50,317 nucleotides of DNA. Origin: an uncultured Candidatus Saccharibacteria bacterium (lineage in GTDB: Bacteria > Patescibacteriota > Minisyncoccia > 2-02-FULL-40-12). Each line of letters starts with the position of its first letter. Position 1 is the first letter of the stretch. The DNA lies in NCBI GenBank assembly GCA_964368135.1, contig CAYIZI010000003.1, positions 1-50,317 of the forward strand. The letters are read 5' to 3'. The notes under the pieces were generated by a model. It was not told the origin of the DNA, did no database searches, and was given only the letters and a program-made list of their open reading frames with translations. The position numbers and the translations under genes are program-made. This document shows positions 2,782 through 50,317 of this stretch, piece by piece.

Positions 2782-4665
2782 ATGAAAAGATGGCTATTGA
2801 CTCTCAGCGCCGCACTTGTGTTTGCTGCTTTGTTTTTCTTTGTCCCAGGACTGTCGGCCTTACAGGTCTTGACTTGGGTTCAGAGATTCCCTTCGCAAAA
2901 TCCAGGAGCCAGATTTTTTCACAGCATGGCTTATGATGAAGCAAGAGGTGGGGCAGTACTCTTTGGCGGATTTACGGGCCAGGACGCTTTAGCCGACACC
3001 TGGGCTTGGAATGGCAGCGATTGGGTTCAGCGGTTCCCCGTTCAAAGCCCTCCAGTGAGATACAGTCATGCAATGGCATACGATGGCGCCCGCGAAGAGG
3101 TTGTGCTCTTTGGAGGATTTCCATTTCCTGCCGGGACACTTTTTTCTGATACCTGGCTCTGGAATGGTGTCAATTGGACACAATCGCCTACAAGCGGTCC
3201 TTCGCGCCGGGGCGCGCATTCAATGGCTTATGATTCTGGGCGTAGAGAAACGCTTTTGTTTGGCGGTTCAAGCCAGACTGGCGGGGTGCTTGGCGATACT
3301 TGGATTTGGAACGGTGCAAACTGGATTCAGTTGTTTCCAACTGAAGCGCCTCCGGCCCGGATGCTTTTTGGGATGGCCTATGATGAAGCAAGAGGAGAAG
3401 TTGTTTTATTCGGAGGCACGACGCTGATCGCCGGGCAAGTCTTTGGTGATACTTGGGTTTGGGATGGCATAAACTGGGCTCAAAAGTCGTCTATTCGTCT
3501 GCCTCCGGCCAGGCGAGACCACAAGATGGTTTACGACAGGGCACGCCAGAGGGTTGTTCTTTTCGGCGGGATCAGTAACGACATTGCATTTTCTGACACC
3601 TGGAGCTGGGATGGTTCAAACTGGACTGAAGAAGCACCGCTGGCAAATCCAGGGCCAAGAGCCAGATATGGTTTGGCTTTTGACTCAACCAGGAATGAGG
3701 CCGTCCTTTTTGGCGGGACCGGTTATTCTGCTGGGGTTGGCTTCGCTGACACCTGGGTTTGGAGTGAAGTTACCGTTCCGGATCCAGTCCCGATTGGGCC
3801 GGAGATTCATTACTTTGCTTTGGGCGATTCGGTGGCTTCGGGTCACGGGCTTATGGATGACGGAACTCCTTGCCGCCGTTCTGATTTGGCGTATCCAAGT
3901 AAAGTAGCCGAGCGCCTTAAGGAACGGTACAAAGAGGTTCACTTTACTTCTTTGGCTTGTTCAGGAGCGAGAGTGAATTTCCCGGTAGAATTTTCCGACC
4001 CACACAAGTTCTTTTCAAACCAAGTCAATGATGTTGTTAGTGCTTTGAGAAGGATTGACGGTGTCCCGACTGTCGTCACCATCACTATCGGTGCCAATGA
4101 CTTTGGGTGGACTGAACTTCGACAGTTCACAGATTTGTTGTATTTAAGCAACCTAAATCGGTTTCAGAGAATTGTGAACAGAATTGGTGCGTCTGTTAGA
4201 CGGACTCTTCGACAGCAGGTTCCCCGGCTTCTTAGGTTCCAGAATGTTACTGTTGTGTTGACCGAGTACCATAATCCGTTCAACACCAACAGTGTATTCT
4301 TTTTAGGACCCGGAGGCCGTTGCGGTTTAATTGAGTGCTATGACCGGACCGAGTACGCCATACATACTTTGAACAACGCAATTGTTCAAGCTTATGTTGA
4401 CTTGGGCCGGCCAAGCAATTTGAAGCTGACGCCTATTCATGGTTTGTTTCACGGTCACGAAAGCCCAAGGCCTTCGTGCGGTAACAATGGGCCAGAAGTA
4501 AACGATACTTGGGTGCAGTACAAGGATGATCCGGACTCAAATAGTTTCCCCTTCAGATTGGATTCGAGTTGGCGAGGGGATTGTATGCACCCTAATAGCC
4601 GAGGCACAGACTTTTACGCGGCTCAAGTTAACTCTGACTTGATTGGCTTGTCCTTTGGTGAGTAG
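2782..4665 (+). CDS. secreted Kelch-repeat beta-propeller fused to an SGNH/GDSL hydrolase
   Basis: ATG at 2782 is preceded by AGGAG; the track start at 2746 is an upstream TTG. A signal peptide is present. About six units of the form W-W-NG-x-W plus MAYD...VLFGG. C-terminal SGNH blocks: GDSVASG, GANDFG and DCMHPN. GC is high (58% in line 3001-3060). Confidence 0.8.
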   Translation: MKRWLLTLSAALVFAALFFFVPGLSALQVLTWVQRFPSQNPGARFFHSMAYDEARGGAVLFGGFTGQDALADTWAWNGSDWVQRFPVQSPPVRYSHAMAYDGAREEVVLFGGFPFPAGTLFSDTWLWNGVNWTQSPTSGPSRRGAHSMAYDSGRRETLLFGGSSQTGGVLGDTWIWNGANWIQLFPTEAPPARMLFGMAYDEARGEVVLFGGTTLIAGQVFGDTWVWDGINWAQKSSIRLPPARRDHKMVYDRARQRVVLFGGISNDIAFSDTWSWDGSNWTEEAPLANPGPRARYGLAFDSTRNEAVLFGGTGYSAGVGFADTWVWSEVTVPDPVPIGPEIHYFALGDSVASGHGLMDDGTPCRRSDLAYPSKVAERLKERYKEVHFTSLACSGARVNFPVEFSDPHKFFSNQVNDVVSALRRIDGVPTVVTITIGANDFGWTELRQFTDLLYLSNLNRFQRIVNRIGASVRRTLRQQVPRLLRFQNVTVVLTEYHNPFNTNSVFFLGPGGRCGLIECYDRTEYAIHTLNNAIVQAYVDLGRPSNLKLTPIHGLFHGHESPRPSCGNNGPEVNDTWVQYKDDPDSNSFPFRLDSSWRGDCMHPNSRGTDFYAAQVNSDLIGLSFGE

Positions 4666-4716: not shown

Positions 4717-5058
4717 TTAAAGAAAATCGAAGATCGGGTCTATGATTAGAATAAATAGCAGTACAACTATAAAAATAATAGTGTTAGCTAAATAAACCCA
4801 CGAAATCGATTTTCTGAATCTAAAAGCCAAAATACTACTACCTACCCCACTTATTATAAAAAATATAGCCCCATAGTAAATTGATATCGTAAAAATCCAA
4901 GCAAGGCTGTCTATAAAGTATTCAAAAAAACCACACGGTTCACTCAAAAAACCACAGCGTCCCTCAAAAGAAAAACTCCAGATCAAAGCGCCAGACAAAT
5001 TCAAAACAATAAACATAATCAAGGCGCTGGCCAGTCCTTTCAAAATATACTTGAACAT
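4717..5058 (-). CDS. small integral membrane protein (hypothetical)
   Basis: 113-aa ORF with about four hydrophobic segments. I recognise no motif. Confidence 0.5.
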   Translation of the reverse strand: MFKYILKGLASALIMFIVLNLSGALIWSFSFEGRCGFLSEPCGFFEYFIDSLAWIFTISIYYGAIFFIISGVGSSILAFRFRKSISWVYLANTIIFIVVLLFILIIDPIFDFL

Positions 5059-5140
5059 ATTTACATTATAATTATGTTTGAGACTTTCTTACCAGTTTGT
5101 TTTTCCACAGCAAATTTTAATATTTCAAAAATTGTCAAGG

Positions 5141-5222
5141 CGGTGGGTGTGAGAGTCGAACTCACAAGCCCTTGCGGGCGCCGGTTTTCGAAACCGGTGG
5201 AATGCCATTATCCGAACCCACC
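5141..5222 (-). tRNA. tRNA-Ser (anticodon CGA)
   Basis: Acceptor GGTGGGT/ACCCACC. Anticodon stem CCGGT/ACCGG with loop TTCGAAA. Long variable arm GCCC-GCAA-GGGC. T arm GTGAG-TTCGACT-CTCAC. Confidence 0.85.
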
Positions 5223-5237
5223 AAAGATTTTTGCCAA

Positions 5238-5309
5238 TGGACCTGAGGGGATTTGAACCCCTGACCCCGCGAATGCCATTCGCGTGCTCTACCGCTGAGC
5301 TACAGGCCC
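5238..5309 (-). tRNA. tRNA-Ala (anticodon GGC)
   Basis: Acceptor GGGCCTG/CAGGTCC with the G3:U70 identity pair. Anticodon stem CGCGA/TCGCG with loop ATGGCAT. T arm AGGGG-TTCAAAT-CCCCT. Confidence 0.9.
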
Positions 5310-6601
5310 AGTAACCTCTCTCCAACCTTATAAATATCGCCGGCGCCCATTAAGATAATTACATAATTTTTGCCGAAATTAACCATTAAATAATCTACTA
5401 TTTTTCGAAAATTTTCAAGAGCTAAAACACGTCCCCCTTTTTGTTTTATTTTCTCTGCCAGAACTTTAGAGCTTATACTTCCGTCATCTTCTTCTCTGGC
5501 TTTGTAAATCGGCGCTAAGATTATTTTATCCGCCTCGTTAAAACTCTTTGCAAACTCGTTGAGTAGTAGTTTTGTCCGGCTGAAAAGATGGGGCTGGAAA
5601 ACGACTACTAATTTTTTATTAGGAAATTTTTCTCGGAAAGCTTTTAGAGTCGTTTTTATTTCGGTGGGGTGATGGGCATAATCATCATAAACTAAGGCGC
5701 CTATTTTAGTCTTGCCTTTGAATTCAAATCTTCGCCAAACCCCTTGGTAGTTTTTAAGCGCAGTAATTATTTTTTCTTCTGGAATTCCCAAAACCTTAGC
5801 CACTGCGAAAGCTGTCTTTGCGTTTTCAATGTTATGCTGACCTGGGAATTTAAGTTTGAAATTATTTTTAACTTTTGAGTAATTAATGATTTGGCACTTT
5901 GCCGATTTCAGAGCCGGTTTAACTTTTGGATCAACAGGATTACAGATTAGGAATCCGTCTTCGGGAATTTTTGAAACCAGTTCACTGAATGCGTTTTGAA
6001 TATCAACTAAGTTTTTATAATAATCCAAATGGTCAGCTTCAATATTAGTGATCACAAGAATTTTGGGCACGAGATTGAGAAAATGCCGTTGGTACTCGTC
6101 TGCTTCCGCGATAAAGTAATCACTTTTTCCAGCCCGAAAATTACTTTTGGTTTTGGTCCGAAGCGAGCCGACAATCGCGGTCGGATCTTTGCCTGCATCT
6201 TCAAGAATATCAACGAGCATGGCCGTGGTCGTGGTTTTGCCATGGGCCCCGGCAACGGCAATGAGATAATATTTATTGGCAATTTTACCAAGAGCCTGAA
6301 AATATGAGAGCACCGGTACTCCTTTTTGCTTGGCCGCTTCAATAATCGCTGGGTTCATTGTTAGCCAGGCGTCGCTAAAAATGTACAAATCAGCCTCGGG
6401 CAAATGTGTTGGATTTTGGTCCAGCGAGATCTGAACGCCCTGGCTTCGCAGTTCATCCAAAGTTTCCGGGCTCGGATTGTCATTTGTTCCTGAAATTTCT
6501 TTTTTCTCGTGAAGCAACAGCCGAGCAAGCGCTGAAATCCCAACTCCGCCAATGCCGATAAAATGGATTCGCTTTACATTAGATATATTGAATTTCTTCA
6601 T
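5300..6601 (-). CDS. murC: UDP-N-acetylmuramate--L-alanine ligase
   Basis: N-terminal GIGGVGISALA Rossmann motif and the Mur ligase P-loop GAHGKTTTT. 433 aa. The stop codon lies inside the tRNA-Ala 5' acceptor stem. Confidence 0.9.
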   Translation of the reverse strand: MKKFNISNVKRIHFIGIGGVGISALARLLLHEKKEISGTNDNPSPETLDELRSQGVQISLDQNPTHLPEADLYIFSDAWLTMNPAIIEAAKQKGVPVLSYFQALGKIANKYYLIAVAGAHGKTTTTAMLVDILEDAGKDPTAIVGSLRTKTKSNFRAGKSDYFIAEADEYQRHFLNLVPKILVITNIEADHLDYYKNLVDIQNAFSELVSKIPEDGFLICNPVDPKVKPALKSAKCQIINYSKVKNNFKLKFPGQHNIENAKTAFAVAKVLGIPEEKIITALKNYQGVWRRFEFKGKTKIGALVYDDYAHHPTEIKTTLKAFREKFPNKKLVVVFQPHLFSRTKLLLNEFAKSFNEADKIILAPIYKAREEDDGSISSKVLAEKIKQKGGRVLALENFRKIVDYLMVNFGKNYVIILMGAGDIYKVGERLLGL

Positions 6602-7580
6602 CTAAATTTATGCCGAATTTATTTTTAACTTTTTGTTTTAAGATTTTAGCCAGCTTTATTATTTCAGATGATTTGCCTTTGCCCGGATTAAAAATCAAAT
6701 TGCCATGATGCTTAGCTACTTTGATTCTTCCAACCTTCATTCCTTTAGCGCCGACTTCTTCCAGAAGATAACCAGTTGGCACCTTGCCGTGATTGACTTT
6801 GCTTTTGTCTATTTTTGATAAAAATTTTTGCCGCAGAGCCGGCCTTACATTATTAATAACAATATTTTTGAAAAAACTGCCTGGGCACAAAAGACCAGGC
6901 CAATATTTCTTTTCTCGCATTTTTATTATTTCTTTTGATGTTTTTTGAAGTTCCTTGGGATCGCCTTTTTTAAATTTGAACTCCGCCCCCAGAATTATCC
7001 AATCTTTTTTCCCTGCCCCATAGGAAGCCGGAGGCTTTCCTTCGGGGTTTTTAAAAATACTTTCCCGGTAACCAAAACGGCATTGTTTTTTTGAGAGCCA
7101 TTGAGTTTCCTTGCCGTTATAAATTTTCACTTTTGTCAGGCAATCTTTTATCTCTTGGCTGTAGGCGCCAGCCGAACCGTAAATCGCTCCGCCGATTGTG
7201 CCGGGAATCCCGGCCATTTTCTCCATTCCAGCCCAGCCAAACTGATTTAACTTATATATAAATGTAAGAAGATTATTTCCAGCGCCGACAAAAAATCTGT
7301 TTCCATTCTTTTCAAAATTTTTAATTTCATTTTTGATTACCAATCCGTTAAAACCCGAGTCAGACGGTACCAAATTTGAGCCGTCACCAATAATATACCA
7401 TTTAATTTTACTATCTTTTGCCCAGTTAATGGCCGAAATTAAATCATTTTCCTTTTTGGCAATAAAAAAATATTTGGCTGGCCCGCCAATTTTCATAGTC
7501 GTCAGTTTTTTAAGAGGATAATTTGTTAAAATCTTGGCTTTGGGAATCATTTTGGATGTTGATAACTTTTGTTGCACCAT
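6579..7580 (-). CDS. murB: UDP-N-acetylenolpyruvoylglucosamine reductase
   Basis: FAD-binding N-terminus (TTMKIGGPAKYF, GDGSNL) and a MurB C-terminal domain. An alternative start lies at 7550. It overlaps the murC start by 23 nt. Confidence 0.9.
   Translation of the reverse strand: MVQQKLSTSKMIPKAKILTNYPLKKLTTMKIGGPAKYFFIAKKENDLISAINWAKDSKIKWYIIGDGSNLVPSDSGFNGLVIKNEIKNFEKNGNRFFVGAGNNLLTFIYKLNQFGWAGMEKMAGIPGTIGGAIYGSAGAYSQEIKDCLTKVKIYNGKETQWLSKKQCRFGYRESIFKNPEGKPPASYGAGKKDWIILGAEFKFKKGDPKELQKTSKEIIKMREKKYWPGLLCPGSFFKNIVINNVRPALRQKFLSKIDKSKVNHGKVPTGYLLEEVGAKGMKVGRIKVAKHHGNLIFNPGKGKSSEIIKLAKILKQKVKNKFGINLDEEIQYI
7005..7051 (-). repeat. 47-nt in-frame hairpin element, copy in murB (peptide NPEGKPPASYGAGKK)
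   Basis: TTTTTTCCCTGCCCCATAGGAAGCCGGAGGCTTTCCTTCGGGGTTTT. This is the partner of 1634..1680. Confidence 0.75.
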
Positions 7581-10871: not shown

Positions 10872-11033
10872 ATGACAAAGTGCAAAAAATGCGGGATGAA
10901 AACTGATGGCTATAAGTGCGAGCTTTGCGGGGCCGAATCCGAGAAGCACGACCCCAAGCATTCTTGCGGGGGCGAGCATTGCCTGCCCAAGTGCTCCGGT
11001 TGCGGCCAGGCCGAAACAAAGTGCACCTGTTAG
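10872..11033 (+). CDS. 53-aa cysteine-rich mini-protein (10 Cys), below the ORF-track cut-off
   Basis: Hand translation: MTKCKKCGMKTDGYKCELCGAESEKHDPKHSCGGEHCLPKCSGCGQAETKCTC. CxxC pairs suggest a zinc-ribbon or metallothionein-like fold. The minus-strand track ORF 10539..10979 that covers it looks spurious. Confidence 0.55.
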   Translation: MTKCKKCGMKTDGYKCELCGAESEKHDPKHSCGGEHCLPKCSGCGQAETKCTC

Positions 11034-11131
11034 GCAAAATATCCTTTTTATTTTATAATTTACCCAGCTGTTTTGTTTTTTGTTAGTTTGTTCGTTGAAA
11101 AATCAGACATAAAGACAGATAGGAGGGAGAG

Positions 11132-12226
11132 GTGAGGACTCATCTTCGGATTCTCGTCGGCTTGTTTGGGTTTTTGGTTTTCGGCGGCCCTGCTTTGCTT
11201 CGCAGTCAGAATCCGGCAAGTCACTCGGTACCCGAGTATCTTTGCCAATCAATGAAAGGATATGATCGGGCGATGTGCCTACATGGCGGCGATGGCAACC
11301 CCCAGGGCCCGTTGGCTAACCGCATTCCGGTCATCTTCATCCACGGCTGGAATTCCAAGGAAGTAGCAGGCGAGCCCGGCCTCCAAGTTTGGTCGGGGTT
11401 GGGCAGTCATCTTTACTACAGCCCCTGGTTCAAAGATAACTACAAAATGTACTTTCTTCTGTATTGGAGCAACATTCAAGGCTGGACTTTGAGAGATATG
11501 GGTTTGACTTTCCGTTCTTTGATTGAACAGATTGACCGGGCCGACCCGGATTTTAGAGGAAAGCCCCTAATTTTAATCGGCTACAGCATGGGCGGTTTGA
11601 TTGCCAGGTCTTACATGCAGGAGTTCAGGCCCGGTTCAAGCGGACGTAACGGAGACAGGGTTTTGAGATTGATTACCCTGGGTACGCCGCATCATGGTTC
11701 TCCGTTTGCCAATGGCCCGGCTCGGGATAATAAGGCCGGCGGCGTATGGCTTGAGACTATGCACCTGGTCATTGACGGCGGTCTTTTCGGCTTTGATATC
11801 CGCTGGGATATGGATAACCGTTATGACCTTCACTGGGATAACTATGATGGGCTGTTCGACTACGAAAGGTTTCCTGAAAACAGCATCTGGATGGAATGGC
11901 TGAACTCCGGCGACACGTTTGAGAGAAAAATCGTGGCCTACGGCGGCAAGGTAAGTCAGTTGGGCCAAATCAAGGACTGCGCTTTGGGGGCAGAGGGATC
12001 AGCCTGCTTCACGGCGATAATGAACGGAGCTCTCGGCATTTCCGAGAGCGACGGCTTTGTCCCGTTGAAAAGCGCGCTCTTTGATCCCTGCCAGGACTGC
12101 CTCGCCACTCATGTTTTTGAAGATTACGACCATAATGAGATTGTCCGCGGCAAGCCTCGACTTTTTGGGGAAACGGAGCCGCTCTTTGAGGGCGTCGCGA
12201 ATGATTTACTCAGTTTGGTTCGTTAA
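11132..12226 (+). CDS. secreted alpha/beta-hydrolase (lipase/esterase-like)
   Basis: GTG start after GGAGGGAGAGG. Signal peptide present. IFIHGW, nucleophile elbow GYSMGG and LGTPHHGS. GC is 62% in line 11281-11340. Confidence 0.75.
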   Translation: MRTHLRILVGLFGFLVFGGPALLRSQNPASHSVPEYLCQSMKGYDRAMCLHGGDGNPQGPLANRIPVIFIHGWNSKEVAGEPGLQVWSGLGSHLYYSPWFKDNYKMYFLLYWSNIQGWTLRDMGLTFRSLIEQIDRADPDFRGKPLILIGYSMGGLIARSYMQEFRPGSSGRNGDRVLRLITLGTPHHGSPFANGPARDNKAGGVWLETMHLVIDGGLFGFDIRWDMDNRYDLHWDNYDGLFDYERFPENSIWMEWLNSGDTFERKIVAYGGKVSQLGQIKDCALGAEGSACFTAIMNGALGISESDGFVPLKSALFDPCQDCLATHVFEDYDHNEIVRGKPRLFGETEPLFEGVANDLLSLVR

Positions 12227-12249
12227 GGCGAGGACTTGTTCCTCGCCTT
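12225..12249 (+). terminator. hairpin terminator after the lipase gene
   Basis: AAGGCGAGGA-CTTGT-TCCTCGCCTT followed by T-rich sequence. Confidence 0.6.
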
Positions 12250-12254
12250 TCGCT

Positions 12255-12283
12255 TTGACTTTCTCCATTATTAGTCGTATACT
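12255..12283 (+). promoter_or_regulatory. sigma70-like promoter (TTGACT-17-TATACT)
   Basis: Read directly, about 45 nt upstream of the 12329 ATG. Confidence 0.45.
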
Positions 12284-12328
12284 ATCTTCTTAAGCACCTT
12301 TTGAGCCGGTTTTCCTACGGAGGTCCAT

Positions 12329-13231
12329 ATGAGAGTTTTGAATGCGTTGTTTCTCGGCGGCGCCATCTTGATCTGGTTTGGCTATCCGGCCATGGTTTTT
12401 GGCCAGGAACAACAGTTTAGGGTCATGGTTCAGATGGCTAATATCCGGCTTGAGCCGACCACCTCAAGTCAGATAGTTGGTCGGGCAAAGGCTGGAGCCT
12501 TGCTGACAGTTGTTAAAGAACTCGGAGACTGGGTGAGGATTTATCTTCCGGAAGATGGGAATCTCCAGAGAGTGGGGCATATCTTCAAGTCTTTGGGGGT
12601 TATTGAGAGAGCGGCCGAACCGGTAGTAAGGCCGGAGCGGGCTTCTGGGCCGGCCCCAAAGCTTTTGCCTGTTCCTGTTTCGGTTTCTGAGCCGGAACCA
12701 GCACCTCAGCCTTCGGCGCCAGCAGCTGCTTCAACTCCGGCAGAACCACAGGTAATCGTTGAGCCGGCTTCACAGCCGAACCGACCTATCCAAGCTGATC
12801 AGCCAAAGGCTCCGGGAGGCTTCGGCGCCGGCCTCCAATTGGCGGCGGCTCCGGGCGGGGCGGTTCCGAGCATTCTCTACGACCTGAACGAGCGGCTGAC
12901 CGTCAACGGCGCCATTGGTTTTTACTACGGCGCCGCAACCGGTTTTATGGGTGAACTTCTCTACCGGTTTCCCAGGCCACCGAAAAATCCTCCGTCAGAT
13001 GCTTCTTTCGAGCCGTATCTCGGCGGTGGGTTAATCTTTGTTTCGGTGAATCCGGGGTTCGGTCTTTCCAGATCATACACTGGCTTCATCGGCTCCGGCG
13101 GGACGTTTCTGACTTTCAGGAAGATTCCCCGCTGGCGGTTTAGCGGCGATATAAATCTGGTTCAGTTTGATGTCGAAAGGGTTGCGGTCGCCGGCATTGG
13201 TATCCGGCTCGGCGGTCACTACTTTTTCTGA
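12329..13231 (+). CDS. signal peptide + SH3b-like domain + Pro-rich linker + OMP-like beta-barrel tail
   Basis: GGAGG Shine-Dalgarno site. The N-terminal segment ANIRLEPTTSSQIVGRAKAGALLTVVKELGDWVRIYL is SH3b-like. The C-terminal ~130 aa show alternating-hydrophobic strands and end in GGHYFF (aromatic terminal Phe), as in OMP beta-barrels. GC is 60% in line 12661-12720. Confidence 0.65.
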   Translation: MRVLNALFLGGAILIWFGYPAMVFGQEQQFRVMVQMANIRLEPTTSSQIVGRAKAGALLTVVKELGDWVRIYLPEDGNLQRVGHIFKSLGVIERAAEPVVRPERASGPAPKLLPVPVSVSEPEPAPQPSAPAAASTPAEPQVIVEPASQPNRPIQADQPKAPGGFGAGLQLAAAPGGAVPSILYDLNERLTVNGAIGFYYGAATGFMGELLYRFPRPPKNPPSDASFEPYLGGGLIFVSVNPGFGLSRSYTGFIGSGGTFLTFRKIPRWRFSGDINLVQFDVERVAVAGIGIRLGGHYFF

Positions 13232-19784: not shown

Positions 19785-20078
19785 ATGGCTATTAGCAGAG
19801 CCGCCCACTCTTTGCCCGATTTTTTCAGGCCCCTAATGTGGTCCTACGATTTTAATTCTTTGGATTTGGAGAAAAATAAAAAAACCATAATCGTAAATAC
19901 GATCAACTACGGCGACTTAAAGCATTGGCGTTGGATAGCGAAGCATTACGGTAAAAACAGGATTAAAGAGGTTTTAGGGGCGATCCCGGCCCAAGAATTA
20001 AGAAACAGAGCCAGAAAATTAGCTTCCCTGATTTTTTCGTTACAAGATTTCAACTATGCACCGAGAGGCGCTAAATGA
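19785..20078 (+). CDS. small protein of unknown function, upstream partner of the AbiEii-like fragment
   Basis: 97-aa ORF that overlaps the next ORF by 23 nt in another frame. The arrangement is typical of two-gene TA-like modules. Confidence 0.45.
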   Translation: MAISRAAHSLPDFFRPLMWSYDFNSLDLEKNKKTIIVNTINYGDLKHWRWIAKHYGKNRIKEVLGAIPAQELRNRARKLASLIFSLQDFNYAPRGAK

Positions 20079-20454
20079 AGAAGGCAAAAAATTATTCCCC
20101 CTTTTTAACAAGCTTTTCAATCTTATTCAGCCGTTCGTTGAATACGAAGGAGTGAGGCTGTTGAGTATTGAAGAAATCGGCGCGACGAAAGCATACGTGA
20201 TAGGCCGGCGGGGGGACTTTAAGGATTATGTCGATTTGTACTATATTTTATCCGAAGGTTATTCCTCGCTGGAAAAAATAGTTAATGTTGCTGAAACAAA
20301 GTATCAGAATGAGTTTAACTCAAGGTTATTTTTAGAGCAACTGGTGTATTTAGAAGATATAGAAGAGTCTCAACTTATATTTTTGAAAAAACAAATGGCA
20401 AAAAAAGAATTAGAAATTTTTTTTAGCGAAGCAATCAGGAACTTAAAGTTGTAA
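20056..20454 (+). pseudogene. nucleotidyltransferase AbiEii-like toxin, internally truncated
   Basis: The N-terminal MHREALNEEGKKLFPLF and the C-terminal SIEEIGATKAYVIGRRGDFKDYVDLYYIL resemble AbiEii-family proteins from memory. The catalytic segment expected between them is absent. Confidence 0.4.
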
Positions 20455-25016: not shown

Positions 25017-25355
25017 TTGGCTAAGAAACTTTATGTAGGAGGTCTTCCTTATGAGACTACCGATGATGAGCTGAAAGAGCTTTTCTCCGGAGCCGGTCAA
25101 GTTGAGTCAGCTAAAGTCATCACCGACCGATACTCTGGCCGAAGCCGGGGTTTCGGATTCGTGGAGATGACTAATGATGATGAAGCTGACAAAGCGATTG
25201 AGTCAATGAACGGCAAACAGGTTGGAGAAAGGACCATTACCGTCAACGAAGCTAAACCGATGGGCGAGAAGAGAGAAGGAGGCTTTGGCGGCCGCCGAGG
25301 CGGCCGGGGCGGATTTGGCGGCAGAGACAGAGGAGGTTTTGGAAGACAGTACTAA
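25017..25355 (+). CDS. RRM-type RNA-binding protein with Gly/Arg-rich tail
   Basis: RNP2 LYVGGL and RNP1 RGFGFVEM. C-terminal GGRRGGRGGFGGRDRGGFG. TTG start. Confidence 0.85.
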   Translation: MAKKLYVGGLPYETTDDELKELFSGAGQVESAKVITDRYSGRSRGFGFVEMTNDDEADKAIESMNGKQVGERTITVNEAKPMGEKREGGFGGRRGGRGGFGGRDRGGFGRQY

Positions 25356-30859: not shown

Positions 30860-31393
30860 ATGCCTGAATTAGAATTACTTCCGGAAAAAACAAAGAGAGT
30901 TGAGATAAGAACGCAAAGAAAACTCGGCTCGGGTGTTTCGTGGCTTGTTTTAGTTTTAATTTTATACGGAGCTATTTTATTTTATAACCGAAGTTTGGAA
31001 GTTAGGGTCCAGGAGCTTGATGCTCAATTTTCAGCTTTTAACCAGTCAAGAAACAGGGCCCAGGAAGACAGATTAAAAGAAGTTGAATCAAAGTTAAATC
31101 GGGGCCAGACCCTTTTGGGCGAGCATGCTCTTTGGTCTAAGGGATTTGAAAAAGTCCAGGCCCTGACCCTGCCTTCGGTTCAGTTCCTGTCTTTAAATGC
31201 TTCATTGCCGGAGTTGAAATTTGAGTTCAGGGCGACCGCTCCTAATTTAACCGCCATTGCCAAACAAGGAGCCAACTTTTTGTCTGACGGCTCGGTTAAA
31301 GACATATCAATAAGCCAGCTTAAAATTTTAACCACTGGCCGAACCGAGTTTGTCATAAAAATAACCTTTAACCGGGACCAATTTCTAAAATAA
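30860..31393 (+). CDS. PilN-like bitopic pilus assembly protein
   Basis: A single TM helix after a charged N-terminus, plus its position after pilM. The call rests on topology and synteny. Confidence 0.5.
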   Translation: MPELELLPEKTKRVEIRTQRKLGSGVSWLVLVLILYGAILFYNRSLEVRVQELDAQFSAFNQSRNRAQEDRLKEVESKLNRGQTLLGEHALWSKGFEKVQALTLPSVQFLSLNASLPELKFEFRATAPNLTAIAKQGANFLSDGSVKDISISQLKILTTGRTEFVIKITFNRDQFLK

Positions 31394-35160: not shown

Positions 35161-36390
35161 ATGGAATTCATCTATCAGGCTAAAACAAGAGAAGGTCAGA
35201 TCACTCAAGGAATCGTTGAGGCCCATAAAGAGTCAGAAGCGGTTTCTGTTTTACAAGAAAGAGGGTTGATAGTTTTGTCTTTGGAACCGAAAGAAAAAGG
35301 GCTTTTGAAAAAAGAAGTAGGCACTTTTTTTGTAAGGCCTAGCCGAAAAGATGTAGTTTTTTTTACGAGGCAATTGGCTACTTTGGTTGATGCCGATGTT
35401 CCTTTGGTCAGTGCTTTAAATACTTTGGCCGAAGAGGCGGCCAATCCGGCTTTTAAAAAGATTTTAGTGGATCTGACTTCTTCGGTTGACGCCGGCAGTT
35501 CTCTTTCCGAGGCCTTAGCCGGATATCCAAATGTTTTTTCCGATTTTTTCGTGAGCCTGGTCAGGTCAGGAGAAACAGCCGGAAAACTTCATCAAGTTTC
35601 AAATTATCTGGCTGATTATTTAGAAAAGCAGGCGGAGATTAGGTCAAGAACTTTAGGCGCTTTGATTTATCCGGTCTTTCTGCTTTTTGCGGTGATCGCC
35701 GTATTCATTGTTTTATTCTTCGGTTTTCCGCTTTTGGAGGTGCCGCCGGTCATTCCGCAGATTTTAGTCATCGTTGAAGAAGCCGGGATAGAGGATTTGC
35801 CTTTAACCACCAGAACCCTGATTTTCGTAAATAATATTTTGATAAATTTCTGGTACATAATTTTTGGCCTGGCGGCAATCGCCATCATTTGGCTGATTCA
35901 GTATGTTCGGACTCCGGAAGGAAGAGAAAGATATGATTGGATTAAATTAAAAATCCCGTTTCTTAAAAAAGCGATTCAAGGCATTTACTTGGCCAGGTTA
36001 TCTGAAACTCTGTCCACCTTAACCAAAGCCGGGGTGCCGATTTTGGATTCTTTGGAGATAACTTCAACCGTGGTCGGGAACAAAGTTTACGAAAATATAC
36101 TTTTGGAAACAAAAGAAAAGGTGGGCACCGGAGCGAGGATTTCCGATGTCTTCAGCCGCTACCCAGATGTTATCCCGCCGATTATCACCCAGATGGTTGT
36201 GGTCGGCGAGAAGACCGGTAAACTGGATTTTATGCTGGAACACATATCTAAATTCTACTCTAATGAAGCCGACTCAATAATCAGAAATTTACCAGCCACG
36301 ATAGAGCCGGTGGTCATCCTGATATTTGGCGGGATAGTGTTTATAATTGTATCTGGCGTATTATTGCCGTTATTTAGTATAATAAGGTAA
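35161..36390 (+). CDS. pilC: type IV pilus platform protein PilC (GspF family)
   Basis: Two T2SSF repeats and three TM segments. 409 aa. Confidence 0.9.
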   Translation: MEFIYQAKTREGQITQGIVEAHKESEAVSVLQERGLIVLSLEPKEKGLLKKEVGTFFVRPSRKDVVFFTRQLATLVDADVPLVSALNTLAEEAANPAFKKILVDLTSSVDAGSSLSEALAGYPNVFSDFFVSLVRSGETAGKLHQVSNYLADYLEKQAEIRSRTLGALIYPVFLLFAVIAVFIVLFFGFPLLEVPPVIPQILVIVEEAGIEDLPLTTRTLIFVNNILINFWYIIFGLAAIAIIWLIQYVRTPEGRERYDWIKLKIPFLKKAIQGIYLARLSETLSTLTKAGVPILDSLEITSTVVGNKVYENILLETKEKVGTGARISDVFSRYPDVIPPIITQMVVVGEKTGKLDFMLEHISKFYSNEADSIIRNLPATIEPVVILIFGGIVFIIVSGVLLPLFSIIR

Positions 36391-36582
36391 AGCTTTTGTC
36401 TGAGCGCAGCGAAGCGAGCACAGCTACAAAGCTTTACCCAGCCCTCTAAGCCCATCGGATATAGGGGGATAGTAATAGTAATGTAAACTAAAGTATATTA
36501 CTAAATATCTGTTCTGCGGGCATAGAGGGCTGGGTGCTCAATGTTGTAGCTATTCGCTACGCTCATAGACAACATTGGCAGG
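36389..36582 (+). repeat. three-hairpin palindromic element, upstream copy (pilC-pilin gap)
   Basis: L hairpin: AAAGCTTTTG...CAAAGCTTT. Central stem: ACCCAGCCCTCTAAGC (36436..36451) pairs with GCATAGAGGGCTGGGT (36520..36535) around a 68-nt loop. R hairpin: CAATGTTGT...ACAACATTG. Confidence 0.7.
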
Positions 36583-36663
36583 TCGATTTTTAAAAAGTTT
36601 TAACCGCAGGATTTTAAGGATTTTTAAAATACTTAATTTCCTGAAGTTAAAATAAGTATCAAA

Positions 36664-37221
36664 ATGAGAGTTAGTTTAAGAAAAGAGAGAGGCTTCACTT
36701 TGGTCGAGCTTTTGGTGGTTATTGCCATTATTGGGGTTTTGGCTACTTTGCTTTTGCTTCAATTAGGCGGAGCCAGGGCTAAGGCCAGGGATACCAAGAG
36801 GGTTTCTGATGTCGCCCAGTTAAGAACAGCAATTGAGCAGTATTTTGACGATAACTGCGGTACATATGTTGGAGGAAATAACTGCGCTGGAGTGGTCATT
36901 GCTAGTTTATATGATGCTTCTAATCCTCTTGGTCCTTACCTTGGAACCGCAATGCCGACTGATCCGCTTGACCAGGCCCAATACGGTTATTCAAGTGCTC
37001 CAGCTGTTGCTACAAGAGTATTAAGATTCCAAATTTGGGCTGAATTAGAGAACGGCAGTACCGGCTTGAGAACAGACCACGATATTACCACCACCGGCTG
37101 GACCGCCAGAAGCACCGGCCGAATGGGAGTTTTGACTAATGGTACAGATCCGGTAACCGGCACTTGTCCAGACAACAATCTGGCTGTCTTCGACTGCGTG
37201 TTTGATGTCGGGGTAAGATAA
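36664..37221 (+). CDS. major type IV pilin
   Basis: Class III signal MRVSLRKERG/FTLVELLVVIAIIG, followed by a 150-aa globular domain with Cys pairs. Confidence 0.85.
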   Translation: MRVSLRKERGFTLVELLVVIAIIGVLATLLLLQLGGARAKARDTKRVSDVAQLRTAIEQYFDDNCGTYVGGNNCAGVVIASLYDASNPLGPYLGTAMPTDPLDQAQYGYSSAPAVATRVLRFQIWAELENGSTGLRTDHDITTTGWTARSTGRMGVLTNGTDPVTGTCPDNNLAVFDCVFDVGVR

Positions 37222-37355
37222 TTTTTTGTTCAAGAGCGAAGCGATTGATTACAAAAAGTTACCCAGCCCTCTAAGCATCTGAAAAAGTATTTAGCATAGA
37301 GGGCTGGGTGCTCAAATTTGTATCTGCTCGCTGTGCTCGCAGACAAATTTGGCAG
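37222..37355 (+). repeat. three-hairpin palindromic element, downstream copy (pilin-pilD gap)
   Basis: The same central stem (37261..37276 pairs with 37294..37309) around a 17-nt loop. The R hairpin is CAAATTTGT...ACAAATTTG, with compensatory changes relative to the upstream copy. The 61-nt right arms are 50/61 identical. Confidence 0.7.
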
Positions 37356-38143
37356 TTTTTTTTATTTTCATTTTTGGCCTGGCAGTAGGCAGCTTTCTAA
37401 ATGTCCTGATTCACCGATTACCAAAAGGGGAGTCAATCCTTGGTTTTTCAAAATGTCAGCATTGCCGTAGGACTATTTATTGGTCCGACAACATCCCGGT
37501 TTTAAGTTTTTTGATTTTGAAAGGTAAGTGCCGGCACTGCGGCCAGGAAATTTCCTGGCAGTATCCGTTGGTTGAGTTATTAACCGGTTTTTTGTTTCTG
37601 TTTTCTTTCTGGGTCTACCCCGAAGAGCCTATTTTTTTGATTTATATCTTGTTTCTTATGAGTTTATTGGTTGTGATTGGTTTAATTGATTTAAAAAAAT
37701 TCTTAATATTGGACAGTCTTATTTTGACAGGCCTTATCGGGAGTCTTATTTTTATGTTTTTGTTTAATGTCTCATGCTTAAAGTTTCAGGAACTGACCAG
37801 CTGTTCCTTTAGAGATTCCTTATTCGGGGTCTTATTTTTTGCCGGTTTGTTTTTGTTAATTTTTTTAATGTCTAAGGGCCGGGGGATCGGCTTTGGCGAT
37901 GTTAAATTCTCGGCTTTACTGGGCTTTATATTTGGCTTGATAAATTCAATCAACCTCTTCTACCTGACCTTTTTAATCGGTTTTATTATTGCTATAATAT
38001 TATTGGCCTTTAAAAAATCAGATTTAAAGACCGAAATTCCCCTTGGTTCAATAATGGCCGGCACAGGCATTTTGCTTTTGTTATCAGGTTTTAATCTTTT
38101 TGGTATAATAGATATAAATTTCATTTTAAGATTATTTTACTAA
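37349..38143 (+). CDS. pilD: prepilin peptidase (A24 family) PilD
   Basis: GSFLNVLIHRLP. Zinc-finger CQHC...CRHC. Catalytic GFGDVKF. The TTG start is embedded in the repeat element. Confidence 0.85.
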   Translation: MAVFFIFIFGLAVGSFLNVLIHRLPKGESILGFSKCQHCRRTIYWSDNIPVLSFLILKGKCRHCGQEISWQYPLVELLTGFLFLFSFWVYPEEPIFLIYILFLMSLLVVIGLIDLKKFLILDSLILTGLIGSLIFMFLFNVSCLKFQELTSCSFRDSLFGVLFFAGLFLLIFLMSKGRGIGFGDVKFSALLGFIFGLINSINLFYLTFLIGFIIAIILLAFKKSDLKTEIPLGSIMAGTGILLLLSGFNLFGIIDINFILRLFY

Positions 38144-46422: not shown

Positions 46423-49400
46423 TTGGAAGCCATCGAAAGGGAAGGAAAAAAGTTTATAGCTGCTTCGGTATTAGCCGAAGAATTTGGTTATGATCGGAAT
46501 CACATTGGGTTATTAGCTCGCCAAGGAAAAGTTGAAGGAATTTTAGTGGAGAAAAAGTGGTACGTAACTAAAGAATCGCTTGAAAGTTATCGAATCAAAG
46601 CAGCTAAAAACAGAAAGGAAGTCGCCCGCCAAGGCATTCAACTGACTCGAAGGCCAATAGCTCCTTCGTTAGCTTCTTCCCATATAGCCGATGGGACCAG
46701 AGCCATCAGGACATATCTTAGCTCCAGCAATTTGAAACTGGGTTTAAGATATGGCCTGGTGGCTCTTTTTATTTTACTGATAAGCGCGACCAGCCTTAGC
46801 TATTACAAAAATCCGGCCCTTGGCCATAAGACTGGTAAACTTATTAAAGATTCTTTTGATTTGGTTGGCGATACTATTAAACTTCCTTCCTTAACATTAT
46901 TCGAAGCTGCCAAAAACTTAGACACAATTACCCAAGTAGTTACTAAGCCAGCCCGAAGGCTTTTATATGGCGAGCTAATAAAGTTTGAGTCTCCGAAAGT
47001 TATTTCAAATTTTGATTCAGTTTCTAAACCAGCAAATAATTTTAAACGAAATCTGTTTTCTCTTTTGTTAAACAGCAGGAATCTTTTTAAAGAGTATTCT
47101 TATTCTGTTAGAAATGAATACAAAGATTCTCTTTTCGCTATTCATAATGAGCTTATAATCCCATTAGCTGATGCTATTTCTGGCCCCATAACTTATCTTT
47201 TAACTCATCTTTTTGGAAAAGAAGAGCCTAAAGAAGATTTAGCCGAGGAATTAATTCAGAGAATTAAAGAATTAGAGCAGCAGTTAAAAGATGGTCGGTT
47301 CTTTATCTTGTCAAATAACAACATCATAAGAGAAATTGTTGAGAGAGTAGTAGTTGAAACCCAAACTCCAGCCCCGCCTCAAACAGTCCAGCCCTTACCG
47401 GCCATTACTTTTAACCAGGCCCTAGAACAACGTTTTTCAGCGATTGAAAATACTTTGCTTTCTTTTGAGGAAAGATTTTTGAAAACCCCAACTATTATAT
47501 CGCCAATCCCAACTTATTCTGGTGGCGGTAATACTGGAATGACAATTTTAAACCCGGCTACTATTGATAGCGAAACTGTAAAAGCCGTAACTTTGACTGT
47601 CAGCGGCAGCGGAACGATCAGCAAAAACTTAACAATTAACGGAGATTTAACCGTTGATACCAACACTTTCTATGTAGATTCAACAAATAATCGGGTCGGT
47701 ATCTTAACCACCAGTCCGGAAACTGCTTTTGAAGTAATCGGCCTGGCTTCAGTCAGCCAACTGGCTGGCGCTGGTCTGACTGATTGCGATGGCGGCACCC
47801 AATCACTTAAATGGGATGGGACAAATAAGGTATTTTCCTGCGGTAGCGGGGGAGTATCTTCTAATTCTATTGACTTCGATGAAATCGTCGCCTCGGCCAC
47901 CTTTGACACTAACTGGGATATTGCTTTAAACAGCAAGAATCTTGATATTGGGGATGCTAAGTTCTTTATTGAGGGCTCTTCCGGTAAAATCGGTATTGGC
48001 ACCAGACAATTAACCGAAGTTTTAGAGATTTCGGGCAATGCTTCGGTTTCAGGCGGTTTCTTTGGTCCCTCTTTCCCGGCCACTGATTGTTCTACTGAAT
48101 CTCAAACAATTTTATGGAACTCAACTACTGGTAAATTTTCCTGCGGTACTGATGCTTCTGGCGGTGGTGGCGGTGCTTTTCAAGTTAGAGAATACCCACC
48201 CGGTGTAACCGTTTCTGATATCGCCACTATCTCTTTTGATGCCGGGGCTTTTAATATCACTGCTTCAGCCGGCACTGATGCGGTGGTTAAGCTTGACTAT
48301 ACCAATGGCCCGGCTTCAAGAGCGGCTGACCAGACCATTACCGGCAACTGGCTCTTTAACAATGACGTTGAGTTCCAGGATAACTCTCTCACCCGCTTCA
48401 AGTTCGCCTCCACTTCCCTTGGCCGGTTCGGCTTTGGCGACACTTCTCCGGAAACCTTTTTTGAGATTGCGAGTTCTTCAGGGATCGTGGCGAGTATCTC
48501 TGATACCTTCTTTGTTGACGCAACGAACAAATTTATCGGCATCGGGACGACGGGGCCGACTACCGTTCTGCATGTGTCCGGTCCGAGTAGCGGTGGAACT
48601 ATTTGGAACTCTGGGTTGAGAGTTGACCGAGATGGTGGAGGTTCTGTTAATCAATACACGGTCATAAACACGAATGGCGGTGCGACGCAGATCATCGGAG
48701 TTGATTTAACTGCCGGTGCTGGTAATGGGGCAGAAATTATTTTCAATCGCAGCAATACAGGTTCCGGTACACCTTCAGTAAGTATGCGTATTAGTTCTTC
48801 CGGCAACGTCGGCATCGGCGCCGCCCCTTCCACCAAATTTGAAGTCCAGGGCACGGCTTCGGCCTCATACCTTCTGACCGGCAATACTCTGCAGGTTGGA
48901 GGCTTCGCATCGGCGGCATACTCAAGATTCGGGACTTCGACTCTTACTGCCAATCCAGCCGGCAACTGGATAACCGGAAGCAGTGACCTTCTTGTTTCAG
49001 GTGATCTGTACGGCGTCGGTTCAATCGCCTTTGCCGGTCCGGCATCAATGTCTAACACGTTATGGGTATCGCCGGGAGGGTATTCCGGCAACGTCGGGAT
49101 TGGGACGACAAGTCCACAAGCAAAGCTGCATGTTTCAGGTGGCACAATATTATTGGACCATAACAAATACTTGCAAGGCAAAGATTCAGGTGGGACCGTT
49201 AGGGACATTATTGGGACAATTTTCTCTAGCCAAGACATTTTTGATCTTGCTGGAACTGCGGCGTATAACGTACGTATCGCAGCTGGCGGAGGAGATATCT
49301 TATTCCCTGGTTCTGGAGTTTGGAAATCTACAGGTTTCGTCGGCATCGGGACCACTGCCCCCTCCACCAAGTTTGAAGTCCAGGGCACGGCCTCGGCCTC

Positions 49401-50317
49401 CTACCTGCTTACAGGGAATACTCTCCAAGTTGGGGGCTTCGCCTCGGCCGCCTACTCGAGGTTCGGGACAAGTATCACATCCTACTCCCGACTGGGAGAT
49501 ACCAACGATCTCTTAATCACCGACGACCTTGAAGTTGACGGCACGGCTTGGTTTGACGGCACCGTCAACTTCTCAACTATCGCTTCGGCCTCTCTTTTCC
49601 ACGCCCAAGACGGCACCGCTGCTTCTCCCAGTTATACTTTTGCCGTAGATAAAGACACGGGCATGTTCAGAAGAGCAATCAATGCTCTGGGTTTCTCCAC
49701 CCTTGGCCAAGAACGTCTGACCATTGATTCCACCGGCAACGTCGGCATCGGGACGACGAGTCCAACTGTTCCGTTCCATGTTTCGGCGAATGCTCCCACC
49801 GCGGACTACCTGGCCAGGTTCATTAATAGCCAAGGAACCCGCGCGTTAGGGCTTATAATCCAAACGAATACGGCCAGTGCGGTTGCGAGTGACCCGCTGT
49901 TCAACGTTATCGGCGGTGCCGACACGAGATTCAAAGTTGAAACCGGCGGCAACGTCGGCATCGGGACGAGTACTCCAACCTCTCTCCTGACTGTCCAAGG
50001 AAGAGGTGAGTTCCAAGGCACCGCCTCTGCCTCCTACCTTTTGACCGGCAACACTCTCCAGGTCGGGGGTTTTGCTTCGGTCGCTTATTCAAGATTCGGT
50101 ACTGACGCAACTACTCACGCCGGGACCATTGATGCCTCAAACGATCTTCTTATTTCTGGCGGTCTTGAAGTGAATTCTGATGTCTTCTTTGATTCAAAAG
50201 CCAGTATCTCTTCCAATCTTCAAATCTCTGGCCGATTCATTGCCGATACCGCCGCCTCCCACTCTTTTACCGGTGATCTTAATATCTCTGATGATTTATC
50301 AGTTGACGGTTCTGCTT
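46423..50317 (+). CDS. giant HTH-TM-anchored surface protein with tail-fibre-like GNVGIGT repeats (3' partial, at least 1298 codons)
   Basis: This ORF is absent from the track. I split every 60-nt line from 46441 to 50317 into codons (line starts are in frame) and found no stop. An in-frame TAG at 46417..46419 closes the frame upstream. The first start candidate is TTG at 46423. The N-terminus has an HTH_17-like segment (ASVLAEEFGYDRNHIGLLARQGKVEG...KKWYVTKESLESY) and then a TM helix (LRYGLVALFILLISATSL). Confidence 0.85.
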   Translation, partial: MEAIEREGKKFIAASVLAEEFGYDRNHIGLLARQGKVEGILVEKKWYVTKESLESYRIKAAKNRKEVARQGIQLTRRPIAPSLASSHIADGTRAIRTYLSSSNLKLGLRYGLVALFILLISATSLSYYKNPALGHKTGKLIKDSFDLVGDTIKLPSLTLFEAAKNLDTITQVVTKPARRLLYGELIKFESPKVISNFDSVSKPANNFKRNLFSLLLNSRNLFKEYSYSVRNEYKDSLFAIHNELIIPLADAISGPITYLLTHLFGKEEPKEDLAEELIQRIKELEQQLKDGRFFILSNNNIIREIVERVVVETQTPAPPQTVQPLPAITFNQALEQRFSAIENTLLSFEERFLKTPTIISPIPTYSGGGNTGMTILNPATIDSETVKAVTLTVSGSGTISKNLTINGDLTVDTNTFYVDSTNNRVGILTTSPETAFEVIGLASVSQLAGAGLTDCDGGTQSLKWDGTNKVFSCGSGGVSSNSIDFDEIVASATFDTNWDIALNSKNLDIGDAKFFIEGSSGKIGIGTRQLTEVLEISGNASVSGGFFGPSFPATDCSTESQTILWNSTTGKFSCGTDASGGGGGAFQVREYPPGVTVSDIATISFDAGAFNITASAGTDAVVKLDYTNGPASRAADQTITGNWLFNNDVEFQDNSLTRFKFASTSLGRFGFGDTSPETFFEIASSSGIVASISDTFFVDATNKFIGIGTTGPTTVLHVSGPSSGGTIWNSGLRVDRDGGGSVNQYTVINTNGGATQIIGVDLTAGAGNGAEIIFNRSNTGSGTPSVSMRISSSGNVGIGAAPSTKFEVQGTASASYLLTGNTLQVGGFASAAYSRFGTSTLTANPAGNWITGSSDLLVSGDLYGVGSIAFAGPASMSNTLWVSPGGYSGNVGIGTTSPQAKLHVSGGTILLDHNKYLQGKDSGGTVRDIIGTIFSSQDIFDLAGTAAYNVRIAAGGGDILFPGSGVWKSTGFVGIGTTAPSTKFEVQGTASASYLLTGNTLQVGGFASAAYSRFGTSITSYSRLGDTNDLLITDDLEVDGTAWFDGTVNFSTIASASLFHAQDGTAASPSYTFAVDKDTGMFRRAINALGFSTLGQERLTIDSTGNVGIGTTSPTVPFHVSANAPTADYLARFINSQGTRALGLIIQTNTASAVASDPLFNVIGGADTRFKVETGGNVGIGTSTPTSLLTVQGRGEFQGTASASYLLTGNTLQVGGFASVAYSRFGTDATTHAGTIDASNDLLISGGLEVNSDVFFDSKASISSNLQISGRFIADTAASHSFTGDLNISDDLSVDGSA
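48802..50103 (+). repeat. three ~135-156-nt intragenic repeats (48802..48936, 49333..49470, 49948..50103)
   Basis: Each encodes G(N/F)VGIG..P(S/T)..(F/L).VQG..TASASYLLTGNTLQVGGFAS(A/V)AYSRFGT. Copies A and B are identical over 37 aa but differ at about 16 synonymous sites. Confidence 0.85.

Follow-up and report, generated by a model that had tools for sequence, protein, structure and literature searches.

We report on a 50,317-nt stretch of DNA (contig CAYIZI010000003.1, positions 1 to 50,317 of the forward strand; hereafter the window) in which two composite palindromes, E1 (36386-36581) and E2 (37219-37355), bracket the major pilin gene of a type IV pilus operon, each built in the order hairpin X, central hairpin (the core) and hairpin Y. 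The window is identical to a locus (L121) sampled from groundwater of Hainich well H51 and its PilD homologs are labelled Parcubacteria; it belongs to a Parcubacteria-type groundwater organism (Patescibacteria, or Candidate Phyla Radiation, CPR) and the pilin sits in a Parcubacteria-type pilus operon. Gene order along this operon is comFC, pilM, an unassigned open reading frame (ORF) at 30860-31393, pilO, pilB, pilT, pilC, E1, pilin, E2, pilD, minor pilins and ligA. Our main finding is that E1 and E2 very probably belong to a dispersed hairpin family that is shared with insertions in rRNA genes. The features on which the argument draws are the following.

35161-36390, plus strand: pilC, encoding the T2SSF platform protein; ORF with a Pfam T2SSF match on the identical locus L121 and 66-77% identity to PilC of syntenic relatives.
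36386-36435, plus strand: hairpin X1 of E1; outer stem GGTAAAGCTTT/AAAGCTTTACC (11 nt, 100% complementary), -12.4 kcal/mol when folded alone.
36436-36535, plus strand: core of E1, long form; arms ACCCAGCCCTCTAAGC / GCATAGAGGGCTGGGT with an A.A mismatch and a 68-nt AT-rich interior, -49.2 kcal/mol.
36536-36581, plus strand: hairpin Y1 of E1; stem GCTCAATGTTGT/ACAACATTGGC, loop TTCGCTACGCTC complementary to the X1 loop, TTGGCAG at its end.
36582-36663, plus strand: pilin leader, ancestral and outside the repeat; GGTCGA(A/T)TT motif common to all four of four syntenic relatives (GGTCGAA in L122-L125).
36664-37221, plus strand: major pilin gene; leader MRVSLRKER followed by GFTLVEL, N_methyl domain called on orthologs.
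37219-37260, plus strand: hairpin X2 of E2; stem TAATTTTTTGT/ACAAAAAGTTA, loop AGAGCGAAGCGATT, -10.3 kcal/mol.
37261-37309, plus strand: core of E2, short form; 16-nt arms and A.A mismatch as in E1, 17-nt interior, -27.0 kcal/mol.
37310-37355, plus strand: hairpin Y2 of E2; stem GCTCAAATTTGT/ACAAATTTGGC, pilD TTG in its 3' strand, U-rich tract beyond.
37349-38143, plus strand: pilD, prepilin peptidase with a TTG start; ORF with A24_N_bact and Peptidase_A24 domain matches.

The initial annotation had described a pilin gene between two direct copies of a three-hairpin palindrome, and both the direct repeats and the inverted arms were confirmed where it had placed them. Right arms of the two copies (36520-36581 and 37294-37355) are 82% identical over 62 nt, left junctions (36425-36451 and 37250-37276) are 89% identical over 27 nt, and the central stems are 94% complementary in each, with 18-nt arms set 64 nt apart in E1 (36436-36453/36518-36535) and 16-nt arms set 17 nt apart in E2 (37261-37276/37294-37309). 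The two compensatory pairs that it had seen in the right stem, which changes from CAATGTTGT/ACAACATTG to CAAATTTGT/ACAAATTTG, can be read straight from the sequence. The Y1 loop is complementary to the X1 loop, in line with what it had noted of the right and left loops. Left loops of both elements hold AGCGAAGCGA, and the X1 loop carries GAGCGCAGCGAAGCGAGC, with X1 as a whole aligning with X hairpins of other genomes. The window cores are 49-100 nt long and ORF-free, with 15 of the 16 arm positions paired; the 16-mer ACCCAGCCCTCTAAGC, allowing up to 3 mismatches, matches the window only at the four arms of E1 and E2, a number of matches reached in none of 100 shuffles. What had been missed is that E1 and E2 are layered, with a promiscuous central hairpin held within an X/Y palindrome.

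In folding predictions, the stability of both elements greatly exceeded that of shuffled sequence (z = -7.9 for E1, -5.2 for E2). The three-hairpin architecture is just one of two folds that are nearly iso-energetic: E2 prefers it as a three-way junction (-55.8 against -51.9 kcal/mol for a long hairpin), whereas for E1 the favoured fold is one long hairpin made by pairing of X with Y (-84.4 against -76.9 kcal/mol for three hairpins). Either way, the transcript is predicted to offer a duplex of at least 16 bp, and one of 45-50 bp in the long-hairpin fold.

To follow the core beyond the window, we scanned one genome per species with the exact pattern ACCCAGCCCTCTAWGC and metagenomes with a paired-arm pattern. 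The genome scan listed matches at 120 or more loci, where by our own estimate a 16-mer would give about 500 single matches by chance in 596 Gb, and among the matches listed there were 45 paired cores (arms in hairpin orientation) in 36 of 120 genome loci. Their hosts include Parcubacteria, Staskawiczbacteria, Portnoybacteria, 'Saccharibacteria' and unclassified Patescibacteria metagenome-assembled genomes (MAGs), with further hosts labelled, at the MAG level, as Omnitrophota, Cloacimonadota, Planctomycetia, Thermotogae, Spirochaetia/Brevinema and a Thermoplasmata archaeon. The metagenome scan added at least 59 loci, bringing the non-redundant copies from both scans to at least 101 after duplicate removal, and two MAGs (JAUSHI01 and JAUSHC01) carry at least five copies each. 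The elements are accordingly not unique to the pilin locus, a point that the initial annotation had left to a search for more copies.

Across these copies, the core is a stem of 16 bp, in which one mismatch (A.A or U.U) is conserved, around an AT-rich interior. Among 91 distinct copies, pairing exceeds 90% at 14 stem positions (pairs 6-17 and 19-20), A-U is seen at position 9/36 in 74 copies and C-G in 14, the mismatch at 18/27 is A.A or U.U in 83, and the covariation score of the stem exceeds that of all 500 shuffles. Interiors have no common fold and range overall from 12 to 80 nt, most of them 64-72 nt with shorter forms of 12-44 nt; the arms set furthest apart in any fetched locus enclose 229 nt (L051). 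Interior sub-families recur at unrelated loci and in different samples (L017_2949, L059 and L211; L194, L199, L205, L219 and L225), which is the pattern of a copied short element with inverted-repeat ends. The core behaves like a non-autonomous mobile element, dispersed in Patescibacteria/CPR and in a few other uncultured bacteria and archaea. In IMG/VR viral contigs we found 57 single matches, as many as chance would give, and not one paired core; copy 1 had no BLAST match in the PLSDB plasmids or the INPHARED phages, and Rfam searches of the region, at the gathering score and at E-values up to 10, returned only tRNAs and chance matches.

Many of the metagenome copies have rRNA sequence as flanks, and Rfam placed the core within 23S rRNA (L212, two copies) and within 16S rRNA (L185, L190 and L217). 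Flank alignment to E. coli rrsH and rrlH (E. coli numbering) mapped the 16S sites to about 63-68 (h6), 439-505 (h17), 200-243, 1126-1177 and 1435, and the 23S sites to about 534-538 (H25), 1157-1187 (H45), 178, 627, 1465-1545, 1860 and 2140-2220; the core is also present in the 5' leader of an rRNA operon. At L094 (3150-3248) it replaces P3 of RNase P RNA (E = 1.5e-15, below the gathering score). Short insertions at this P3 and at the tips of helices in 16S and 23S rRNA are built from the same core unit. Two side observations belong here: the RNase P RNA gene at L188 (1598-1817) has two tandem cores, one on each side of the conserved region GAGGAAAGTCCGAAC, and a group II intron domain match (RF01998) lies at 1875-1959 of L185, just downstream of a 16S gene with a core in h6. 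H25 and H45 are classical sites of rRNA intervening sequences (IVSs), which RNase III cuts out and which take the form of extended stem-loops bounded by inverted repeats (PMC4990558), and a survey of CPR rRNA genes found many short, ORF-less, non-intron insertions at these same sites, for which IVSs were suggested and which were left uncharacterised (PMC11270868).

In operons, the core recurs within the same X/Y layer as in the window. Alignment of flanks gave an X half-type, TAAAGGGCTTTGTCC...GGTTACAAAACCTTT|ACCC, and a Y half-type, GGGT|GCTCAATTTTGTAGC...ATAAAATTNGC, and operon copies lie between rplN and rplX and upstream of rpsE (L017), before dnaJ (L089), between mcsB and clpC (L118) and beside pilB (L023 and L080). 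Among about 80 non-rRNA copies, 38 locus-and-strand combinations, equal to about 35 distinct copies because L039, L080_7551 and L089 were counted on both strands, have, on one strand, a stop codon upstream and a start codon downstream that are each no more than 130 nt away. The geometry is tightest in 19 X-core-Y composites from different genomes, in which X is always upstream and Y always downstream relative to transcription, the TAA or TAG of the upstream gene forms the first bases of X, and in 17 of the 19 the next start codon comes directly after, or within, the 3' foot of Y (as at rplX, rpsE, dnaJ and pilB), the unit as a whole filling the spacer between the two codons. The core is confined to positions that are transcribed but non-coding. 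Its orientation within X/Y is variable (6 A.A and 8 U.U copies), and X stems show compensatory pairs, with one position UA in 8 sequences and CG in 7, while for Y hairpins the MAFFT alignment was too gappy and gave no consensus structure. A claim that the core always sits at a hairpin apex was weakened to a tendency, since mutually complementary flanks (z < -2) are only enriched, at 17-20% of copies compared to 3% of displaced controls.

Both window elements fit into this picture at their 5' ends, with the TAA stop of pilC (36388-36390) supplying the first three bases of X1 and the TAA stop of the pilin (37219-37221) those of X2. E2 matches the full stop-to-start geometry, and E1 ends 82 nt before the pilin ATG, at the GGTCGA motif common to relatives. 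The pilin leader that follows holds a 27-nt AT-rich inverted repeat at 36598-36652 and a promoter-like site at 36624-36653, as well as a direct repeat of GATTTTTAAAA at 36585 and 36619; motif and repeats may represent a pilin promoter or operator.

Four syntenic relatives (L122-L125), fetched via PilD homologs, allowed the same spacers to be compared. Three of them (L122, L123 and L124) have the same gene order and no trace of the elements, with spacers of 95 and 22 nt in L122. Together with the dispersed family, these empty orthologous spacers indicate that the initial annotation was essentially right in offering, as one of its options, a pair of miniature inverted-repeat transposable elements (MITEs). 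The pilin itself is a full-length ortholog with 65-69% identity to L122-L125, as conserved as PilD (62-66%) and not far below PilC (66-77%), and we therefore regard the gene between E1 and E2 as inherited rather than exchanged. The fourth relative, L125, carries between two minor-pilin genes (7225-7425) an X/Y element whose central hairpin is not the core but ACCCCTCACTTGGT..62 nt..ACCAAGTGAGGGGT. The occurrence of the core in either orientation, its replacement in L125 and a degraded element in the L125 pilin-pilD spacer are evidence that the centre and the X/Y layer are separable. As further observations from L125, the downstream minor pilin has a called GTG start (7350) and an 18-residue leader encoded within the element, with GFTLVE right after Y, and the pilin-pilD spacer (4898-5000) holds a degraded, core-less X/Y element with another palindrome, TCCCGATAGC...TATCGGGA, nested in the X loop; palindromes nested in palindromes seem common here. 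In L123, a small GIY-YIG nuclease ORF lies directly after pilD (5103-5360), which is absent from the window.

The strict placement of the composites invites the reading that X-core-Y is a domesticated intercistronic RNA module, selected as a spacer for termination-reinitiation or for cistron ratios rather than being mere selfish DNA. In its favour are the placement of the two codons in composites from varied genomes and operons (the stop codon beginning X and, in 17 of 19, an ATG at the 3' foot of Y), the constant order of X and Y along transcription, the compensatory pairs in the X stem, and a scarcity of Shine-Dalgarno sites that could let structure matter at initiation. We nevertheless consider it unlikely, as operons that are otherwise identical manage without elements in L122-L124, the core is found in both orientations within X/Y, another hairpin takes its place in L125, and the same core resides in rRNA, where cistron coupling has no meaning; the tight geometry, moreover, could follow from compact genomes with near-zero spacers.

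The inherited pilin bears equally on a second alternative, in which site-specific recombination at the palindromes, as attC-like or other sites, would allow the pilin gene to be exchanged as a cassette; the initial annotation had listed recombination sites among its options. A gene flanked on both sides, in direct orientation, by an imperfect palindrome whose centre varies does resemble an integron cassette, and at eight loci, mostly non-CPR and including one Thermoplasmata archaeon (L012, L061, L102, L106, L192, L206, L229 and L241), the core lies at the apex of attC-looking palindromes with ends of the form ..YTAAC ... GTTAGC/GTTAT. The window copies themselves end in TAAAGCTTTTGT.../...ACAACATTGGCAG (E1) and TAATTTTTTGT.../...ACAAATTTGGCAG (E2), with neither an R'' (RYYYAAC) nor an R' (GTTRRRY) box, and an attC assignment was rejected for them on sequence as well as context. 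No recombinase, integrase or transposase gene was found among 30 window ORFs scanned, which left out a few longer ORFs (e.g., 47670-48083 and 48236-48619), and no further copies or silent pilin cassettes occur within the 50 kb window. Since X-core-Y also separates ribosomal-protein and chaperone genes and the core occurs in rRNA loci, and since the pilin is orthologous along its full length also where elements are absent, the proposal of pilin cassette replacement was abandoned as scarcely credible. If the attC-looking sites elsewhere are true attC sites, gene cassettes might carry the hairpin between phyla.

At the downstream end of E2, the TTG start of pilD (37349-37351) was reported to lie inside the right hairpin, and our predicted fold agrees, with the codon paired in the 3' strand of Y2; the TTGGCAG noted at equivalent places closes both E1 and E2. 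TTG is taken as the start because the window sequence, TTGGCAGT, aligns with ATGGCAGT, the pilD start of L122 and L125. Just beyond, UUUUUUUUAUUUU begins 4 nt past Y2, a U-run that could let Y2 attenuate transcription and that is one of two observations in favour of locally evolved, locus-duplicated terminators or attenuators lowering read-through from pilC to pilin and from pilin to pilD. The other is that relatives have simple hairpins after the pilin, namely GGGCGTCC..GGACGCTC with a T-run in L124 and a hairpin with a T-run in L123. We judge this explanation very unlikely, given that a consensus terminator scan flagged neither E1 nor E2, that the U-run encodes the Phe-rich N-terminus of PilD and is a feature of relatives as well, and that the same 16-nt arms are found in about 100 unrelated settings, some of them within rRNA genes, in which a terminator would be lethal. 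Shine-Dalgarno-like sequence is rare upstream of window genes, being present at a few only (11132, 12329 and 21143) and lacking, for example, at 34093, 35161, 36664, 38150 and 41176. A Shine-Dalgarno-like GAGGG in the 3' arm was discounted, as this organism hardly uses Shine-Dalgarno sequences and the identical arm is found in rRNA.

Signals acting at the level of DNA, whether an uptake sequence for a competence pilus, a cruciform or replication signal, or a protein-binding site, were weighed as well. This is a pilus and competence locus with comFC upstream, and the GCGAAGC of the X loops is a motif that forms a very stable mini-hairpin in DNA; inverted uptake-sequence pairs serve as terminators in Neisseria. 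Two copies per 50 kb are far under the densities of uptake sequences, however, identical arms across phyla and in archaea misfit a species-specific uptake signal, and the placement is limited to transcribed non-coding positions, all of which leaves this explanation highly improbable. The X-loop motif itself recurs elsewhere in the window as GAGCGAAGCGA (which contains GCGAAGC) at position 61, within positions 1-100 and beside tRNA-Leu; as a structured element this site was rejected, its fold not being significant (z = -0.95).

Returning to the selfish hairpins that we favour, the following course of events would tie the observations together. Folding of its transcript, into a three-way junction or a long hairpin, would re-join the flanks, and this would let rRNA helix tips and operon spacers tolerate the core and so let it persist. 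In the operon, the long stem of the E1 and E2 transcripts would be cut by RNase III as in rRNA IVSs, and cleavage at both elements is the most economical expectation because they offer a duplex of at least 16 bp and share identity with units at RNase III-processed rRNA sites. After such a cut, the pilC and pilin messages would each end in an X hairpin as a 3' cap, and the pilin and pilD messages would each begin with a Y hairpin as a 5' cap; the pilin mRNA would run from Y1 to X2, and its capped ends would favour a discrete, stable message. The pilD message would presumably start with Y2, where the TTG would stay paired and keep pilD translation low, and with few Shine-Dalgarno sites the structure at a start codon may count more than usual. 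Punctuation of the mRNA and occlusion of pilD by E1 and E2, two roles suggested in the initial annotation, are thus plausible from sequence and predicted fold, whereas that RNase III cleavage of E1 and E2 actually shapes pilin and pilD expression is a tentative proposal on which we would put somewhat less than even odds.

Taken as a whole, the statement that E1 and E2 are non-autonomous, MITE- and IVS-like selfish hairpins whose transcript RNase III probably cleaves, and that they would thereby punctuate the operon and keep the pilD TTG buried, has in our estimate a probability of about 0.6. Several points weigh against it. The case for mobility is entirely distributional: neither a transposase partner nor an ORF-bearing full-length copy turned up in the fetched loci, where arms 200-4000 nt apart proved to be only neighbouring elements and the one 229-nt interior of L051, and no consistent direct repeat of the kind left by target-site duplication flanks the core or X-core-Y in the collected copies. 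The closest relatives are only 62-68% identical in PilD and too distant to date the insertions. Collection by exact-arm patterns inflates arm conservation, the narrow patterning of the scans makes the copy counts lower bounds, and some taxon labels come from short, possibly mis-binned MAG contigs. As template switching at the DNA level can preserve the symmetry of a palindrome, covariation is not proof of RNA-level selection. With regard to processing, no RNase III gene is among the 30 window ORFs scanned, and rRNA expansions at such helices can persist unexcised.

A bolder version, which we think doubtful but worth stating, holds that the core is a hairpin-apex-seeking mobile element of an undescribed kind that inserts via folded single-stranded DNA or RNA and crosses between CPR, other bacteria and archaea, with the stem and its A.A mismatch serving as a processing signal and with excision from mRNA as in rRNA. 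If true, its apex-seeking targets would comprise rRNA helices, P3 of RNase P RNA, attC sites and intercistronic palindromes, and organisms without Shine-Dalgarno-led initiation would have an operon punctuation based on RNase III.

In the literature searched we found neither a description of this hairpin family nor a mention that rRNA, RNase P RNA and spacers of mRNA have it in common. Many of the short CPR rRNA insertions left uncharacterised before (PMC11270868) can be assigned to this one family, which, in a group whose rRNA genes are known as insertion-rich, ties rRNA IVSs to MITE-like mobile DNA. It also leads to a prediction, namely that operon mRNAs should be cut at these sites in the same nuclease step by which rRNA loses the element. 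For annotation, the element accounts for unusually long spacers, for start codons other than ATG (the pilD TTG being one) and for wrongly called starts, as in the L125 minor pilin, and for pilus biology it means that the pilin here is not a swappable cassette.

Other features of the window lie apart from the operon spacers. The window opens with CAT, possibly a minus-strand ATG, and a free-standing ORF resembling LAGLIDADG_3 homing endonucleases (232-915, minus strand) is located between tRNA-Leu and tRNA-Cys. Three stretches, 3001-4000, 11001-13000 and 48001-50000, reach 50-55% G+C against about 41% for the genome, the first overlapping a Kelch/GDSL-lipase ORF and the second ORFs for alpha/beta-hydrolase and SH3-domain proteins. 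An RRM_1 RNA-binding protein gene is present at 25017-25355, and a fragment similar to the AbiEii toxin at 20056-20454.

To place the family among known systems, we compared it with other short palindromic elements. Integron attC sites are similar to E1 and E2 in that they, too, flank a gene as imperfect palindromes whose apical part varies, and some non-CPR cores sit at the apex of attC-like palindromes; E1 and E2 differ in having no R''/R' boxes, extrahelical bases or cassette-like gene content, and no integrase among the ORFs scanned. The double-hairpin elements of Allomyces, the hairpin-forming repeats of sponge mitochondrial DNA and the palindromic repeats of Volvox are analogous in behaviour only, as small selfish hairpin repeats that spread to intergenic regions and variable rRNA parts of compact genomes (PMC2800124, PMC2670323), whereas they belong to eukaryotic organelles and are unrelated in sequence.

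Functionally closest are rRNA IVSs and the co-transcribed MITEs (Correia, ERIC, REP). Correia/NEMIS elements of Neisseria, ERIC/IRU elements of enterobacteria and REP/BIME elements share with our family that they are short, non-coding and multi-copy, have terminal inverted repeats, and form long hairpins within spacers that are transcribed. RNase III acts on Correia hairpins, ERIC has short and long forms differing by internal segments of about 70 nt, and REP hairpins stabilise upstream mRNA. The family is distinct from all three in that it has no sequence similarity to them and no Rfam match, is also found in rRNA and RNase P RNA genes and spans phyla; neither a TA duplication or GTAG tag nor a cognate transposase or RAYT came to light in the copies and loci collected. 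REP/REPIN sequences are imperfect palindromes of 20-40 nt with a conserved GTAG or CGTC tag at one end (PMC3733652) and a link to a RAYT gene, and identity with them was rejected because the core is without either tag and those of the Y hairpins (GTAG, ATAG or GTAA) are inconsistent.

As for rRNA IVSs, these are regarded as selfish, RNase III-excised elements with a sporadic, horizontal-looking distribution (PMC4990558). They take the place of the tips of peripheral rRNA helices, among them H9, H25 and H45 of 23S and h6 of 16S. The window copies depart from them in occupying operon spacers of mRNA instead of rRNA helix tips, and the family as a whole is shorter (about 50-100 nt), ORF-free, and uses one arm sequence across many lineages and helices. 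IVSs, too, are extended stem-loops at the tips of helices 25 and 45 whose terminal inverted repeats contain a single mismatch, and the very same core sits at H25 and H45 of CPR 23S genes.

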